Virus record (IMG/VR): IMGVR_UViG_2606217100_000003
DNA length: 13,869 nt
From: a virus
Lineage: Duplodnaviria; Heunggongvirae; Uroviricota; Caudoviricetes
Strand: one strand, 5' to 3'
Shown: in pieces, positions 4,560 through 11,763 of the stretch
How positions within the stretch are numbered: position 1 is the stretch's first letter
How the letters are laid out: each line of letters starts with the position of its first letter
Program-made: the position numbers and the translations under genes
Notes under the pieces: model-generated
Databases searched by the model: none
Seen by the model: only the letters and a program-made list of their open reading frames with translations
What the model was told of the DNA's origin: nothing

Positions 4560-5027
4560 TCATCGAAGGCATTGCGTCCTGATGTATTCCTGAAGCGTTC
4601 TCAGTGCTGTTTGGTCGCGGATAATTCCGTCCCGGATACCGAGAACGTTTCGTCCAGCAACTGGAGAGAGTTCGACGGTGGCATCATTGCCCATGCCGGA
4701 GGCGCTGGAGGTTTCGGCTGAGGATGGCACAGGGCATTTTCCTTTGACGAGCACCCGACCACCATTATCAAGCTTGCGCCGAAGAGCATCATTTTCAGCT
4801 TTCGCATCAGCTAACTCCTTCGTGTATTTATCATCGAGTGCATCAGCATCACGCTGGCGCTGCTGCATGTCAGTAATGGTGGCGTTCGCCTTCTCCAGTT
4901 CACTGGCCTTGTTATCGCGCTGTTCTTTGTAGGCGATTGCATTATCACGGTAATGATTAACAGCCCATGACAGGCAGACGATGATGCAGATAACCAGAGC
5001 GGAGATAATCGCGGTTACCCTGCTCAT
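4560..5027 (-). CDS. rzpD: Spanin inner-membrane subunit (Rz, i-spanin)
   Basis: The track ORF is 4560..5039; the likely start is ATG at 5027 ([30 protein letters not shown]..., as lambda Rz begins), overlapping the endolysin stop as ATGA. It has an N-terminal TM segment and a coiled-coil periplasmic domain. Confidence 0.85.
4601..4807 (-). CDS. rzoD: Spanin outer-membrane lipoprotein subunit (Rz1, o-spanin), embedded in the +1 frame of Rz
   Basis: 68-aa ORF fully inside Rz in another frame, with SD aaggag 7 nt upstream of ATG 4807. It has a lipoprotein signal ending in the lipobox-like VVGC and a proline-rich mature part ([11 protein letters not shown]), like lambda Rz1. Confidence 0.75.
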
Positions 5028-5521
5028 TGTTGCCCCCACAAACAGACCTCACGCTCAATCTCACGACGAGTCATCAGGCCTTTCCATTGCTTACCGCCAG
5101 CGTATGCCCAGCGACGTAGCTGGTCACATGCGCCCTTGATATCGCCCTGGTTTATTTTGCGAAGAAGAGTAGATGTTCTGAAATTGCCTGCGCCCACGTT
5201 ATAGACGAACGAGTAAAGAGCGCCGCGCGTTGTTTCCGGTATATCGACTTTGATGTACGGGTTAATTTGTCTGGCTACCGTGGCAAGGTCTTTATTCAGG
5301 AGGGCTTTGCATTCTGCTTCGGTATACGTTTTACCGGGAATGATGTCTTTTCCTGTATGCCCGTAATATACAGTCCATACACCAACTATGTCTTTGTAAG
5401 GATTATGTCTCACACCTTCCAGACCATCGTTACCACTTGGGCCAGTGATTAACACAGATGCTATAGCAATAGCCCCGCCACCAATAGCAGCAGCAACAGC
5501 TTTTCGTAATGATGGAGGCAT
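5024..5521 (-). CDS. rrrD: SAR endolysin (phage 21 R-type lysozyme)
   Basis: 165-aa ORF with a Gly/Ala-rich signal-anchor-release N-terminus ([20 protein letters not shown]), recognised as phage 21 R21/RrrD-like. Its start overlaps the holin stop. Confidence 0.9.
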
Positions 5522-5736
5522 TATCCACCTCTCGCAGCCTTGCGCTTATCTTCTTTAATCTTGAAATAAAGGTTTGTCAGGTACGTCAGCAGGCCAAATA
5601 CCAGGCTACCCAGCACACCTATTGCTGCCCACTGTGAGGGCGTGACTTTATCGAGCAGCTGTAAAAACCAGTACCCGGCACTACCTGCTGAGGTGCCATA
5701 GGCGACACCCGTTGTTAACTTATCCATGGATTTCAT
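5521..5736 (-). CDS. essD: Class II holin/pinholin (phage 21 S-type) with dual-start motif
   Basis: 71-aa [27 protein letters not shown]... with two TM segments, matching S21 from memory. The MKSM dual start (Met1 antiholin / Met4 holin) is present, with SD gaggtg upstream. Confidence 0.9.
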
Positions 5737-5847
5737 AACCCCACCTCGCAGACAAAGCGGGTGTAAATTGAGGGAATACTACGAAACGTAACAGACTCGG
5801 AGTCAGTGAATAACTCAGGTATTGGGTTATCAGCTAATATCGAGACT

Positions 5848-5880
5848 CAAAAAATGGAAAAACCCGCTCGACGGCGGGTT
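5848..5880 (-). terminator. Intrinsic terminator acting on minus-strand transcripts upstream of the lysis cassette (tR'-like?)
   Basis: Plus strand aacccgc-tcgacg-gcgggtt (7-bp GC-rich stem, 5861-5880). On the minus strand the hairpin is followed by tttccatttttt. It sits about 125 nt upstream of the essD start. Confidence 0.5.
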
Positions 5881-6309
5881 TAAGCTGTGTGACGAAGTAA
5901 CCACTCTTAACAGCATAACCAATTTTTTACGTACGTAAACCACTAAATGATATTTGCGAGAATGCTACCGAGTATTGAAAACACCACTACAAATACATAA
6001 GCAAATCTCAACAAATAACCAACAAATAATTTCCAGCGTTATTTTTAGCCAATTTAAATTGAACCTTCAAATTATAGAGCGCTTATAAATAACAGCCATT
6101 AATATAAATTGGCTAATAGATTTATTTTTATTCAGCCAAGAGCCATGAATAGGATTCGATAGAAAAAAGTTCAGATAAAAATAGAGATCTACTTCACAAA
6201 TTAAACGAGAAACCAAAACTTACATCTTGAAATAATCACATTGATTAGATGAATATTTATCGCGCAGTGACATCATTTTTTAATAATAGTTCAAAAAAAA
6301 GGGCTCACG
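5881..6309. promoter_or_regulatory. AT-rich porin promoter/5' leader region, possibly also carrying a divergent late promoter
   Basis: About 430 bp AT-rich intergenic region upstream of the porin gene. It contains an imperfect 13-bp inverted repeat, gccaatttaaatt (6048-6060) and aatataaattggc (6101-6113). No promoter hexamers were confidently assigned. Confidence 0.3.
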
Positions 6310-7392
6310 ATGAAAAAATTAACAGTGGCAATTTCTGCTGTAGCTGCATCAGTACTGATGGCGATGTCTGCTCAGGCAGCTGAAATTTATAATAAAGACA
6401 GTAACAAGCTGGATCTGTACGGGAAAGTTAATGCTAAGCACTACTTCTCCTCTAATGATGCAGATGATGGTGATACTACTTATGCCCGTCTTGGCTTCAA
6501 AGGTGAAACCCAAATCAACGATCAACTGACTGGTTTCGGTCAGTGGGAATATGAATTCAAAGGCAACCGCGCTGAATCTCAAGGTTCCTCCAAAGATAAA
6601 ACCCGTCTTGCCTTCGCTGGCCTGAAATTCGGTGACTACGGCTCCATCGATTATGGCCGTAACTACGGTGTAGCATACGATATTGGTGCATGGACCGACG
6701 TTCTGCCAGAATTCGGTGGCGATACCTGGACCCAAACAGATGTATTCATGACTGGTCGCACCACAGGTGTTGCAACTTATCGTAACAACGACTTCTTTGG
6801 TCTGGTTGATGGCCTGAACTTTGCAGCTCAGTATCAGGGCAAAAATGACCGAAAAGAAGTAACTGAAGCTAATGGCGATGGTTTCGGTTTCTCAACTACT
6901 TATGAGTATGAAGGATTCGGCGTGGGTGCAACCTATGCTAAATCTGATCGCACTAATAATCAGGTTATCTACGGTAACAACGGTCTGAATGCTTCTGGTC
7001 AAAATGCTGAAGTATGGGCAGCTGGTCTGAAATATGATGCGAACAACATCTATCTGGCCACCACCTATTCTGAAACCCAGAACATGACTGTTTTTGGTAA
7101 TAACCATATTGCCAACAAAGCACAAAACTTCGAAGCTGTTGCACAATATCAGTTCGACTTCGGCCTGCGTCCATCCGTTGCTTACCTGCATTCTAAAGGA
7201 AAAGACTTGGGTGTTTGGGGTGATCAGGACCTGGTTGAATATGTTGATGTAGGTGCAACCTATTACTTCAACAAAAATATGTCCACTTTTGTTGACTACA
7301 AAATCAACCTGATTGATAAGAGCGATTTCACGAAAGCATCTGGCGTTGCTACCGATGATATCGTTGCTGTAGGTATGGTTTACCAGTTCTAA
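6310..7392 (+). CDS. nmpC: Outer-membrane general porin, OmpC family (prophage NmpC/Lc-type), apparently intact
   Basis: 360-aa ORF with signal peptide [23 protein letters not shown], then [17 protein letters not shown]... and a C-terminal ...VGMVYQF ending in the terminal Phe typical of porins. It resembles OmpC throughout and is not interrupted by an insertion sequence. Confidence 0.9.
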
Positions 7393-7556
7393 TTTGATTA
7401 CTAAAAGATATGTTGTGGGAGACTTTGCCTCCCCAACATATAAGTGGCTCCCTCAAGCCACTTCCTTTAGAAGCACAACCTTGCTTCTAACTATACAAAC
7501 CTTCTGTTATATATTACCCTTTATTTTTGGGGGCGTTTCAACGCCCCATTTTTAAT
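7393..7556 (+). ncRNA. ipeX: Structured porin 3'UTR, candidate IpeX-like regulatory RNA
   Basis: About 164 nt between the porin stop and its terminator contains three further hairpins: 7409-7441 (atatgttgtgggag/ctccccaacatat), 7442-7463 (aagtggc/gccactt) and 7469-7488 (agaagca/tgcttct). IpeX was described in the nmpC 3'UTR of DLP12/PA-2 (from memory); identity was not verified. Confidence 0.45.
7529..7556 (+). terminator. Intrinsic terminator of the porin transcript
   Basis: gggggcgtt-tc-aacgcccc hairpin (8-bp GC-rich stem) followed by atttttaat. Confidence 0.6.
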
Positions 7557-7580
7557 AACTTTTAGTAAATAATTGGCGTA

Positions 7581-7964
7581 TTAATTAGAGTTATTAACAA
7601 CGATATCCATCTCTAACCGGATATCTAATGCCATTAACATCCCTTCAATTATGCCCTCAGCCTTTTGTAACCTTTTCCCGATATAACCATCAGAGCAGCA
7701 ATGCTTACCTGCCAGTGACATGAATGTCATACCGACTACATAATAATCTACTAATAAATCGTGCAAATCGCTGTTGTTCTTTTTCAGACGGGCCATGCAC
7801 CCGCAAATGATCATCGCGTCATCGTCACAACATTGCGGGCGAGATTTTACTTTTGAAGGAATTAATCCCTTAAAACCGGCGGCAATGGACGACCAGGTCA
7901 CATCTTCATGATTATTAGCCGCCCACGCTCCCCAACGCTCAAGAACCATCTGAATATCACGCAT
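7581..7964 (-). CDS. quuD: Late-gene antiterminator Q (phage 21/82-type)
   Basis: The track ORF 7581..7979 begins with TTG; ATG at 7964 gives 127 aa, [24 protein letters not shown]..., matching my memory of K-12 QuuD, with cysteine-rich segments (CCDDD, CGC, HCC). Confidence 0.85.
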
Positions 7965-10129: not shown

Positions 10130-10747
10130 TTAAAAAAGCGATAAGCTTTGCCCCGAATTCATCGGTAGTGGAGAGAAAGTAACATCACGTATTTGCTCCC
10201 CGAGCAGAAGAAACCTATCCAAGGGTAGCGGCGGTATCGTAGCAAACCCTGAAAGCCCCTTCTTTCTTGCAACATCTCTCGCATCCATAAGGATACGACC
10301 TAACACGTTCATACCATAAAAGTTACCTTCGGAGTCTTTACTAGCCCCCCAAAATTGGTCCTTCTCTGAGTGCTCAACAATGTCATGCTCTCCTGTGCTA
10401 TCCAGGAGCGCGAAAAACGATTCCCAGTTCTGGCAAAGCTTAACGCAGACACACCATTTCATTACCGAAACTCGATTTTTTTCCCAACCTGCACGGGTTT
10501 TAGCTTCGAAAGATCTGGCGGTTTGTTTAGCTTCATAAGGGTTGCCTTGGGTAATAATAGCCTTTTGGATATCTGGATAGTCTGGATATCGGCATGCTTG
10601 GTAAAGAATTTCACTCGATTGAATGGGTATACCATTAACTAAGAGCGGATATCCTTTGGCCATGTTGGAAAGACCACCCCATTTCTCGGTGGTTTTCCTG
10701 AAAGAAACTGTGTTGTGAAACAGGTATAGTCTATAGCTCATGATCAC
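10130..10747 (-). CDS. NADAR-domain protein (YbiA-like, DUF1768; predicted ADP-ribosyl/N-glycoside hydrolase)
   Basis: About 203-205 aa (GTG at 10747 or ATG at 10741 with SD ggtga). Three segments match E. coli YbiA as I recall it. GGLSNMAKGYPLLVNGIPIQSSEILYQACRY matches GDFSNFAAWPIKVDGKTWPTSEHYFQAQKF. WEKNRVSVMKW matches WESVKEQVMRK. IVEHSEKDQFWGA...NVLGRILMDAR matches LVEHTENDAYWGD...NRLGYLLMELR. Confidence 0.75.
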   Translation of the reverse strand: MIMSYRLYLFHNTVSFRKTTEKWGGLSNMAKGYPLLVNGIPIQSSEILYQACRYPDYPDIQKAIITQGNPYEAKQTARSFEAKTRAGWEKNRVSVMKWCVCVKLCQNWESFFALLDSTGEHDIVEHSEKDQFWGASKDSEGNFYGMNVLGRILMDARDVARKKGLSGFATIPPLPLDRFLLLGEQIRDVTFSPLPMNSGQSLSLF

Positions 10748-11763
10748 CGATTATACACATTACGCTTCATAAGTGGATACCAACAATCCAGAGCTCTATT
10801 TCCCGTTCGAAGATAAGTTCCCCACCAGTACGCTAGAGGGGTATTATTGGGGCAGTTTCTGAAAGTAAAGATAGTTCCACCAAACCCAACACCATTGAAA
10901 GTTGAAAAGCCTAAAGGCTTTATAGCATCAGAAGGATTTTGACTCTGACCAAGGATATCAAACCCAACTTTTGTCATAATTGCTTCAAAACGATCTCGTC
11001 TCTGCTCATTAGGGAAAAAATTATTCGCGACGTAACCGTCACGATATGTTCCTAAATAATGTACTTGACCGTCAGCCCATTCAGGTATTGATACACTTTG
11101 CGCTTTTGGCCAAAAAACCTCAGAACTCGAACTGTTTCGGCGTTGATTTTCAACAACTGCAAACTCACCACCATCAACGCAAACTGAAATATTCCTATCA
11201 GCAAATTTTCGTTCAAGTTGTTTTTTTATATTCCATGCTGAATACGTGTGCCCGCCTAAAAAGTACACCAATATTGTAATATTTTGGAGTTCAAAGTGCT
11301 CAATAAACCAAGTTAAATCATTGATTGCCTTAGCTCCTGAGAATGAAACATCGTCAAGGTAAATAAATTCACGGAATGAACTAACTCTTTGACGTTGTGA
11401 CAGTCTGGTCACAACGTTGAATTCTTCTACACAATCTTCGCGAAGCAAATCCAAAAACTCAGATTGACTGGTGCCTTGGTTCTGGATATCGAGAAACGCT
11501 GCGGTTTGAAAGAACCTTTCATTTTGCTCATCATTGGCGATACTACTAATAACTCTGCGATAGTCGCTCTCAGAGAAGTATCCAATCCCCATTAATCGGT
11601 CCGTTTCCTCTAAGACAAATCGCCTATCGGTTAACTCAAATTGATTAATCCATCGATTAACATGATCAATGCTCATGCCACCTTGAGGAGGGTTTCGATA
11701 GTCATTTAATTTAGTAGCAATTTGCCCCATAAGATCACGATCTGTAACATTGCTATAACACAT
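10744..11763 (-). CDS. Uncharacterised 339-aa protein with weak phosphoribosyltransferase-like motif; first gene of the NADAR operon
   Basis: ATG at 11763 with SD agga; its stop TGA (10746-10744) overlaps or abuts the NADAR start. The central FIYLDDVSFSGAKA loosely fits the type-I PRTase PRPP-binding signature (hydrophobic x4, DD, small residues, G). No other family was recognised. The gene is low in GC. Confidence 0.7.
   Translation of the reverse strand: MCYSNVTDRDLMGQIATKLNDYRNPPQGGMSIDHVNRWINQFELTDRRFVLEETDRLMGIGYFSESDYRRVISSIANDEQNERFFQTAAFLDIQNQGTSQSEFLDLLREDCVEEFNVVTRLSQRQRVSSFREFIYLDDVSFSGAKAINDLTWFIEHFELQNITILVYFLGGHTYSAWNIKKQLERKFADRNISVCVDGGEFAVVENQRRNSSSSEVFWPKAQSVSIPEWADGQVHYLGTYRDGYVANNFFPNEQRRDRFEAIMTKVGFDILGQSQNPSDAIKPLGFSTFNGVGFGGTIFTFRNCPNNTPLAYWWGTYLRTGNRALDCWYPLMKRNVYNR

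Follow-up and report, generated by a model that had tools for sequence, protein, structure and literature searches.

How does a prophage that carries a porin gene of its own lower the synthesis of OmpC in its host? OmpC is a receptor for several phages, and the loss or exchange of porins affects the entry of antibiotics. The question is raised by a stretch of 13,869 nucleotides (nt), IMG/VR virus record IMGVR_UViG_2606217100_000003, referred to here as the window, in which an NmpC/Lc-type porin gene is followed by a structured 3′ untranslated region (3′UTR) that corresponds to the RNA IpeX. The region is almost certainly the lysogenic-conversion module, NmpC/Lc porin plus IpeX, of a DLP12-type lambdoid prophage. 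None of the checks made on this identity failed. The locus is thus already known and common: the porin, well known from prophages, is present as an intact allele, together with its known IpeX RNA. The action of IpeX on OmpC has been described since 2006 as unexplained or independent of pairing. An unpaired linker within IpeX is complementary to the translation initiation region of ompC, and this complementarity provides a concrete and testable model. We lean slightly toward this model, in which IpeX would act as an antisense RNA by base pairing with ompC, and we would extend the same slight preference to the identity of the locus and the pairing mechanism taken together. With respect to the literature consulted, the complementarity between the linker and ompC, as well as the existence of a retargeted homologue on P7 and P1-like plasmids, seem to be new. 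If the model is true, it would explain how lysogenic conversion exchanges the host porin for the phage porin.

IpeX and its complementarity to the ompC leader

The spacer between the porin gene and quuD (7393–7580) showed 94.7% identity, over 186–187 nt, to both the nmpC-quuD spacer of Escherichia coli K-12 and the 3′UTR of lc from phage PA-2, two sequences that are identical to each other. Counted from the porin stop codon, the 3′UTR is 164 nt long if taken to finish with the T-run and 188 nt long if extended to the stop codon of quuD (7580), and the former value fits the length of 167 nt given in a review for the IpeX of DLP12. Its location, between the stop codon of an nmpC/lc-type gene and a Rho-independent terminator, within a lambdoid prophage and convergent with the Q gene, is also that of ipeX. 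The initial annotation had described a 3′UTR of about 164 nt with three hairpins and a terminator, and considered it a candidate IpeX-like RNA; judging from the alignment it is an orthologue of ipeX, beyond being merely IpeX-like. The accompanying suggestion, that the porins of the host could be exchanged for that of the locus, repeats the published Lc/IpeX model and is not a new inference. Published work describes IpeX as the terminal part of the porin transcript and as an RNA that reduces the levels of both OmpC and OmpF. The window RNA has the position, the three hairpins, the linker and the terminator of the K-12 and PA-2 IpeX, as well as an identical copy of the region proposed below as the seed, and differs from them by about 10 substitutions or indels that, apart from A7422, fall outside the stems and the seed. 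In K-12 an IS5 element separates the porin promoter from ipeX, whereas in the window the porin gene is intact and IpeX can therefore be made from the porin promoter.

Of 5426 complete E. coli genomes, 2510 contain the element, which also occurs in 36 phage records; the identity is about 90% or higher throughout. Rfam yielded no family at the gathering score, and a comparison of positions 7300–7650 relaxed to E ≤ 10 gave chance matches only; no MicC or MicF model was matched. A 53-amino-acid open reading frame (ORF) with a TTG start at 7394–7555 on the plus strand was discarded as non-coding because one-base indels among the variants break the frame; the annotation of phage Chlobot lists a portion of it as a hypothetical protein.

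The minimum free energy of the 3′UTR was −52.7 kcal/mol, as compared to −27.2 ± 3.4 kcal/mol for shuffled sequences (z = −7.6, with none of 200 shuffles as good), and the predicted structure consists of three hairpins, an unpaired linker and a terminator (Table 1), with hairpin 1 starting at 7408 and not at 7409 as initially placed. The terminator, a stem at 7530–7547 followed by the T-run ATTTTTAATA on the plus strand, has the form of an intrinsic terminator and is the sole plus-strand terminator-like site called between positions 5700 and 8100. It is one-directional, since the stem, when read on the minus strand, leads into an A-run. The columns of the alignment that belong to stems are variable less often than those of loops and linkers (5 of 74 versus 24 of 92; Fisher p = 0.001), and the G-U variants all fit the plus-strand RNA only. 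Covariation among the lambdoid copies alone is uninformative, as 32 of the 37 pairs are invariant and no pair has both of its partners changed. At position 7422 the window has an A, where the alignment shows a G in each of the 12 other lambdoid copies, that of phage ev243 among them; the change costs two pairs at the top of hairpin 1, whose energy is −16.4 kcal/mol versus −22.2 kcal/mol in K-12.

Two portions of the linker, the proposed seeds A and B, are complementary to adjacent portions of the ompC leader (Table 1). The pairing of seed A spans the ompC Shine-Dalgarno sequence GAGGG, and the two helices are set apart by a 5 × 1 internal loop. The leader of K-12 ompC was used as target and is a fair proxy for that of the host, because 5364 of 5371 genomes carry the ompC leader with at least 99% identity. 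The predicted mean unpaired probability was 0.72 for seed A and 0.84 for seed B, and both are also predicted to be unpaired within the last 464 nt of the mRNA. Among 136 copies of the 3′UTR, representing 48 distinct sequences, nucleotides 7498–7520 are invariant and form the longest such block, while the 31-nt stretch 7497–7527 is identical in 135 of the 136 copies, the length of the 3′ T-run aside. As modeled, IpeX has the features of an antisense small RNA (sRNA), namely extended complementarity to the ompC initiation region located in a stretch that is predicted to be unpaired and is conserved.

Energies were calculated for duplexes formed by the linker only and by co-folding of whole RNAs, as RNAduplex applied to full-length molecules gave meaningless end-to-end structures. 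The IpeX-ompC duplex, of 15 + 9 bp, had an energy of −26.4 kcal/mol, and the duplex of MicC nucleotides 1–40 with ompC had −26.5 kcal/mol by the same method; the IpeX site overlaps the stretch of the ompC leader used by this MicC control duplex. Co-folding of IpeX with ompC leaves every IpeX hairpin in place. The change in free energy upon co-folding (ΔΔG) was −22.9 kcal/mol for ompC, −13.6 kcal/mol for ompF, −5.8 kcal/mol for ompA, −5.1 kcal/mol for ompT, and −6.9 kcal/mol for the initiation region of the porin located upstream of IpeX itself. The controls gave −32.1 kcal/mol (MicC-ompC) and −19.1 kcal/mol (MicF-ompF). The duplex energy observed was reached by 11 of 3000 shuffles of the target and 4 of 3000 shuffles of the linker, and a helix with at least 15 contiguous pairs occurred in 8 of 5000 shuffles. 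When both strands of the 13.9-kb window were scanned for complementarity to ompC, the linker was the best site (rank 1 of 5530). A search of the species representatives in GTDB (596 Gb) for an exact 20-mer of the seed returned three E. coli matches and four contigs from metagenome-assembled genomes (Lachnospiraceae, Rikenella, Bacteroidales and Sphingobacterium); the latter four were set aside as chance matches because they have nothing else in common with the window and their number is about that expected.

A study from 2006 reportedly found inhibition of OmpC and OmpF, and not of OmpA, with an effect on ompC, not on ompF, that does not depend on Hfq. The predicted order, ompC > ompF >> ompA, matches these reported effects, an agreement that we take as a lead and not as a test. 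The reported independence of IpeX from Hfq fits a long duplex.

The P7-type homologue and the alternatives to base pairing

A diverged form of the module was identified in phage P7 (AF503408) and in 116 P1-like plasmids from E. coli, E. fergusonii, Klebsiella and Salmonella, which code for an nmpC-type porin with 81.7% protein identity to that of the window. The homology at the DNA level (75% nucleotide identity by blastn) extends from window position 6247, in the 5′UTR, to 7522, in the linker, and ends before the terminator. This module belongs to a different phage type, has odaA and ssb as neighbors, and possesses a different terminator. Its 3′UTR, which in the P7 locus extract occupies positions 2317–2500, folds into the same three hairpins followed by a linker and a terminator. 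In hairpins 2 and 3, 5 of 17 pairs have both partners replaced in the P7 type relative to the lambdoid type (two in hairpin 2 and three in hairpin 3), and 97.4% of the aligned cells are still paired; controls in which the pairing was slid along the alignment had 29–52% paired and at most one change on both sides. Hairpin 1 was compared by hand because MAFFT had set the 5′ arm of P7 two columns out of register. It includes two compensated pairs in the P7 type, the sixth from U-A to C-G and the seventh from U-A to G-C. The three hairpins are conserved, with covariation against the diverged homologue.

The linker of the P7 type is complementary to ompF from −13 to +8, a region that spans both AUG codons as well as the Shine-Dalgarno sequence. 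This pairing had an energy of −27 to −28.5 kcal/mol, which was matched by 0–2 of 1000 shuffles, with ompA at background. The linker also has the 12-mer UUAUUUAUUACC in common with MicF. The homologue suggests the existence of a small family of porin-linked 3′UTR RNAs with retargetable seeds, present on widespread P1-like plasmids.

A mechanism can be proposed in which the invariant single-stranded linker would pair with nucleotides −31 to −23 and −21 to −7 of the ompC leader. As the Shine-Dalgarno sequence would be occupied in this way, together with the stretch that the MicC control duplex uses, binding of the 30S subunit would be blocked. Expression of the phage porin would then shut off the synthesis of the host OmpC, and the translation-initiation region of the porin itself would escape targeting. 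The hairpins would serve as a stabilizing scaffold and as processing boundaries, and the P7/P1-like plasmid module would have the same scaffold with the linker retuned to the ompF initiation region. To the more general proposal that IpeX is a MicC-like antisense RNA, and that phage porin genes share a three-hairpin scaffold with an exchangeable seed directed against the competing host porin (ompC for the lambdoid type and ompF for the P1-like type), we would give an even chance.

It may be instead that IpeX works without base pairing, by titration of a protein (Hfq, ProQ, an RNase or a translation factor) or through an indirect envelope-stress effect, and that its complementarity to ompC is due to chance. 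We regard this explanation as the less probable one, but it has a number of points on its side. According to reviews, base pairing with ompC or ompF is not the way in which IpeX acts, and no complementarity exists or is needed. The maintenance of the hairpins through compensatory changes implies that the structure itself is under selection, although all of these compensations fall on one split, lambdoid versus P7, and thus amount to several substitutions but one comparison. The sequences involved are A+U-rich and p is about 0.001–0.004 for one pre-specified target, so that the pairing statistics are moderate, of the order of 10^-3, and not decisive; two unrelated natural sequence windows attain −27 kcal/mol. 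Covariation between seed and target is absent within E. coli because both partners are invariant. Also unfavorable to pairing are the result for lambdoid IpeX and ompF, which was not significant (87 of 1000 shuffles as good), the absence of the linker from the eight best sites listed when the window was scanned against ompF, and the possibility that the A+T-rich region upstream of the porin gene is silenced. Chance complementarity has to be reconciled, on the other hand, with a complementary stretch that is the only long segment left unpaired in the 3′UTR and is better conserved than any other block of it, with a site that covers the ompC Shine-Dalgarno sequence and the stretch of the MicC control duplex, and with the equally long complement to ompF found at the same position of the scaffold in the P7 homologue. 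As to the reviews, the two longest exact Watson-Crick runs, of 10 and 9 nt, are both shorter than the standard BLAST word of 11 nt, and we infer that the search of 2006 could have missed the pairing for this reason.

Two further explanations dispense with a regulatory RNA in the window. That the hairpins are mere stabilizers or terminators of the 3′ ends of the convergent porin and quuD genes, and the module a silent remnant here, is in our opinion improbable. The convergent arrangement and the one-directional terminator agree with such a role, as would a weak terminator on the minus strand at hairpin 1. The initial annotation had noted a U-rich tail following this hairpin on the minus strand and assigned it a possible role in stopping transcripts from the Q side. 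The tail is real if short, with four U's (CUUUUAG in the window and CUUUUUC in K-12), but the scan did not call a terminator at this point and the U-run is absent from the P7 type, in which hairpin 1 itself is conserved. Termination also leaves the invariant unpaired block of 26 nt unexplained. In favor of silence, the prophage is cryptic, with terminase and P genes annotated as truncated, and the 400 bp on the 5′ side of the porin gene have a G+C content of 26–31%, a low value typical of silenced, horizontally acquired promoters. A sigma-70 scan of the plus strand of the essD-porin spacer found no strong match. An intact porin ORF does not by itself imply expression, and the A+T-rich upstream region and the lack of a strong sigma-70 match weaken the case for it. 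The gene nmpC is called "quiescent" in E. coli BE in the title of a 1998 paper, and the PA-2 annotation places CRP sites in the stretch equivalent to the essD-porin spacer. Against a silent remnant, ipeX RNA has been detected in clinical isolates by quantitative reverse transcription PCR, and the porin gene and its 3′UTR are kept intact as a unit in active phages and in heavily decayed remnants. In the remnant of strain SCU-101 (locus extract positions 1416–2700) they lie beside yedK, ybcM, ybcL and emrE, with quuD reduced to a short fragment and the lysis genes gone. Least probable is that the linker is conserved for a function of the minus-strand DNA, such as the late promoter pR′ or a Q-utilization site, the plus-strand RNA being incidental. 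The late promoter of lambda lies just downstream of Q, and the motif TTGAAA-19 nt-TAATAT is present across 7541–7511. The spacing of this motif is 19 nt, however, its −35-like hexamer falls in the variable loop of the terminator, and the scan of the minus strand of the porin-quuD spacer, which includes the linker, called no promoter-like site. The linker is kept in P7, where the neighboring gene is ssb and not Q, and the G-U pairs are suited to the plus-strand RNA only. Moreover, a strong terminator-like hairpin, AAACCCGCCGTCGAGCGGGTTT, followed by a T-run occurs on the minus strand at 5881–5860, about 125 nt upstream of essD, and resembles the tR′ of late operons. The regulatory region of the DLP12 lysis operon was cloned as a fragment from −121 to +650. 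From this hairpin and this fragment we read that the late promoter and its terminator may lie between the porin gene and essD, in which case the porin module would separate Q from its site of action.

The porin gene and its prophage

The porin ORF starts with ATG, includes the PEFGGD motif, and ends in VYQF, with the YQF terminus present. The initial annotation of the gene as full length, with a signal peptide and a C-terminal phenylalanine, is borne out by the end-to-end coverage of Pfam Porin_1 (PF00267; positions 1–337 of 337, E = 3e-152) and by the alignment of residues 24–360 with the solved chains of OmpC, PhoE and OmpK36. Of the NCBIfam models only that of the broad OmpC subfamily was passed (515 bits, cut-off 484); scores for the PhoE and OmpF equivalog models were below their cut-offs. 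The protein is 91.7% identical both to PA-2 Lc and to K-12 NmpC rebuilt without IS5, and 99.7% identical to the porin of phage ev243. Sequence comparison places it nearer to Lc and NmpC than to the chromosomal OmpC, OmpF and PhoE, that is, in the NmpC/Lc subgroup. It shares with Lc and NmpC the family, the signal peptide and the genomic slot. These porins occur in two length classes, 360 and 365 amino acids, with the window allele in the former and Lc and NmpC in the latter; the differences, which include deletions of 3 and 2 amino acids, are clustered in a few variable blocks, which we take to be external surface loops.

At the nucleotide level the identity to K-12 is 88% for the coding sequence, 98% upstream (98.4% for 5737–6309), 95% for the 3′UTR and 99.5% for quuD. 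Between strains, the porin coding sequences have 87–89% identity and the flanks 95–99%, a pattern that suggests diversifying selection or recombination acting on the exposed parts of the protein. Exactly the same porin recurs in at least 40 IMG/VR contigs, and a search for related loci with the porin recovered only copies that are 98–100% identical, hence no diversity. The porin match in "Salmonella phage SPF_0923" is a chromosomal ompN-ydbK-uspF fragment and was not counted as a phage porin module. Insertions of the IS5 or IS4 family have hit this porin gene repeatedly (K-12, phage 434B, JB2 and LR-64-1), and what strain JB2 retains beside quuD is no more than roughly the final 64 nt of the 3′UTR.

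Table 1. Location of the porin, of IpeX with its structural parts, and of the adjacent genes in the window
Feature	Position	Strand	Basis
Holin gene essD, which opens the lysis cassette and diverges from the porin gene	5521–5736	−	Annotation of identical record
essD-porin spacer: porin promoter region and 5′UTR	5737–6309	+	26–31% G+C over 5900–6300; 98.4% identical to K-12
NmpC/Lc-type general porin, intact, 360 amino acids; "porin OmpC" in RefSeq (WP_024238521.1)	6310–7392	+	Pfam, NCBIfam, solved chains
Signal peptide, 23 amino acids, cleaved after AQA, mature start AEIYNKD	6310–6378	+	Matches the sig_peptide annotated for PA-2 lc
IpeX, 3′UTR RNA of the porin transcript, 164 nt	7393–7556	+	94.7% identity to K-12 ipeX/PA-2 lc 3′UTR; fold z = −7.6
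Hairpin 1, 8 + 5 bp, bulged U at 7416	7408–7441	+	Fold; 12 of 13 pairs invariant in lambdoid copies
Hairpin 2, 8 bp, loop CCCUCA	7442–7463	+	Fold; loop invariant between lambdoid and P7 types
Hairpin 3, 9 bp	7467–7490	+	Fold
Unpaired linker	7491–7529	+	Fold
Proposed seed A, AACCUUCUGUUAUAU, complementary to ompC mRNA −21 to −7 (AUAUAACAGAGGGUU)	7498–7512	+	15 contiguous pairs including one G-U
Proposed seed B, CCUUUAUUU, complementary to ompC mRNA −31 to −23 (AAAUAAAGG)	7518–7526	+	9 pairs
Intrinsic terminator, GGGGCGU-UUCA-ACGCCCC then AUUUUUAAU	7530–7556	+	Terminator scan; 7 of 7 pairs invariant in lambdoid copies
quuD, Q-type antiterminator, convergent with the porin gene	7581–7964	−	Pfam Phage_antitermQ, E = 8.5e-54; annotation

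Over its whole length the window matches the chromosome of E. coli SW071614 with 100% identity, and it consists of a DLP12-type cryptic lambdoid prophage flanked by appY and intD. It begins with appY, followed by remnants of tail-fiber and terminase genes, nohD, the lysis cassette (rzpD-like, rrrD and essD; 4560–5736, minus strand) and the porin gene. Beyond the latter are quuD, ylcG, rusA, ybcO, ninE and ybcN on the minus strand, a gene pair of the NADAR and phosphoribosyltransferase-like types, a truncated replication gene P, and intD. The porin gene is therefore located between quuD and the lysis genes and is transcribed against both. K-12 has the same gene order, but nmpC is split by IS5B, in agreement with the disruption by IS5 mentioned in the initial annotation. 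The Q-porin-S arrangement is also found in the free-living lambdoid phages ev243, PhiR70_1 (PhiR series), mEp332 and PA-2, as well as in phage 434B, which acquired the K-12 region together with IS5 and has the same layout. The NADAR-family and phosphoribosyltransferase-like genes are adjacent in the early region of the prophage (10130–11763, minus strand) and gave weak PADLOC matches to PDC-M42C (4e-8) and PRTase_III-A (5e-10); they may constitute a phage-defense pair.

Relationship to other porin-regulating and 3′UTR-derived RNAs

The proposed action of IpeX resembles that of MicC and MicF, in which a single-stranded segment is likewise the complement of the initiation region in the mRNA of a major porin. 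IpeX includes the sequence GUUAUAU...CCUUUAUU, and the 5′ end of MicC is GUUAUAUGCCUUUAUUG. The genes micF and micC are linked to ompC and ompN, respectively, in each case the gene of a rival porin, and ipeX is linked in the same manner to nmpC. IpeX differs from both in that it is the 3′UTR of a porin mRNA and not a separate gene, in that its seed is internal and not at the 5′ end, and in that its pairing is predicted. IpeX may therefore work like MicC and yet not be a member of the MicC family, with which it has no Rfam match.

A second group for comparison is formed by CpxQ, SroC and MicL, which are enterobacterial sRNAs derived from 3′UTRs. Like IpeX, they share the terminator of the mRNA from which they derive and act on other mRNAs. 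IpeX differs from them in being phage-borne, and in being directed, according to the proposal, at the host rival of the protein encoded immediately upstream.

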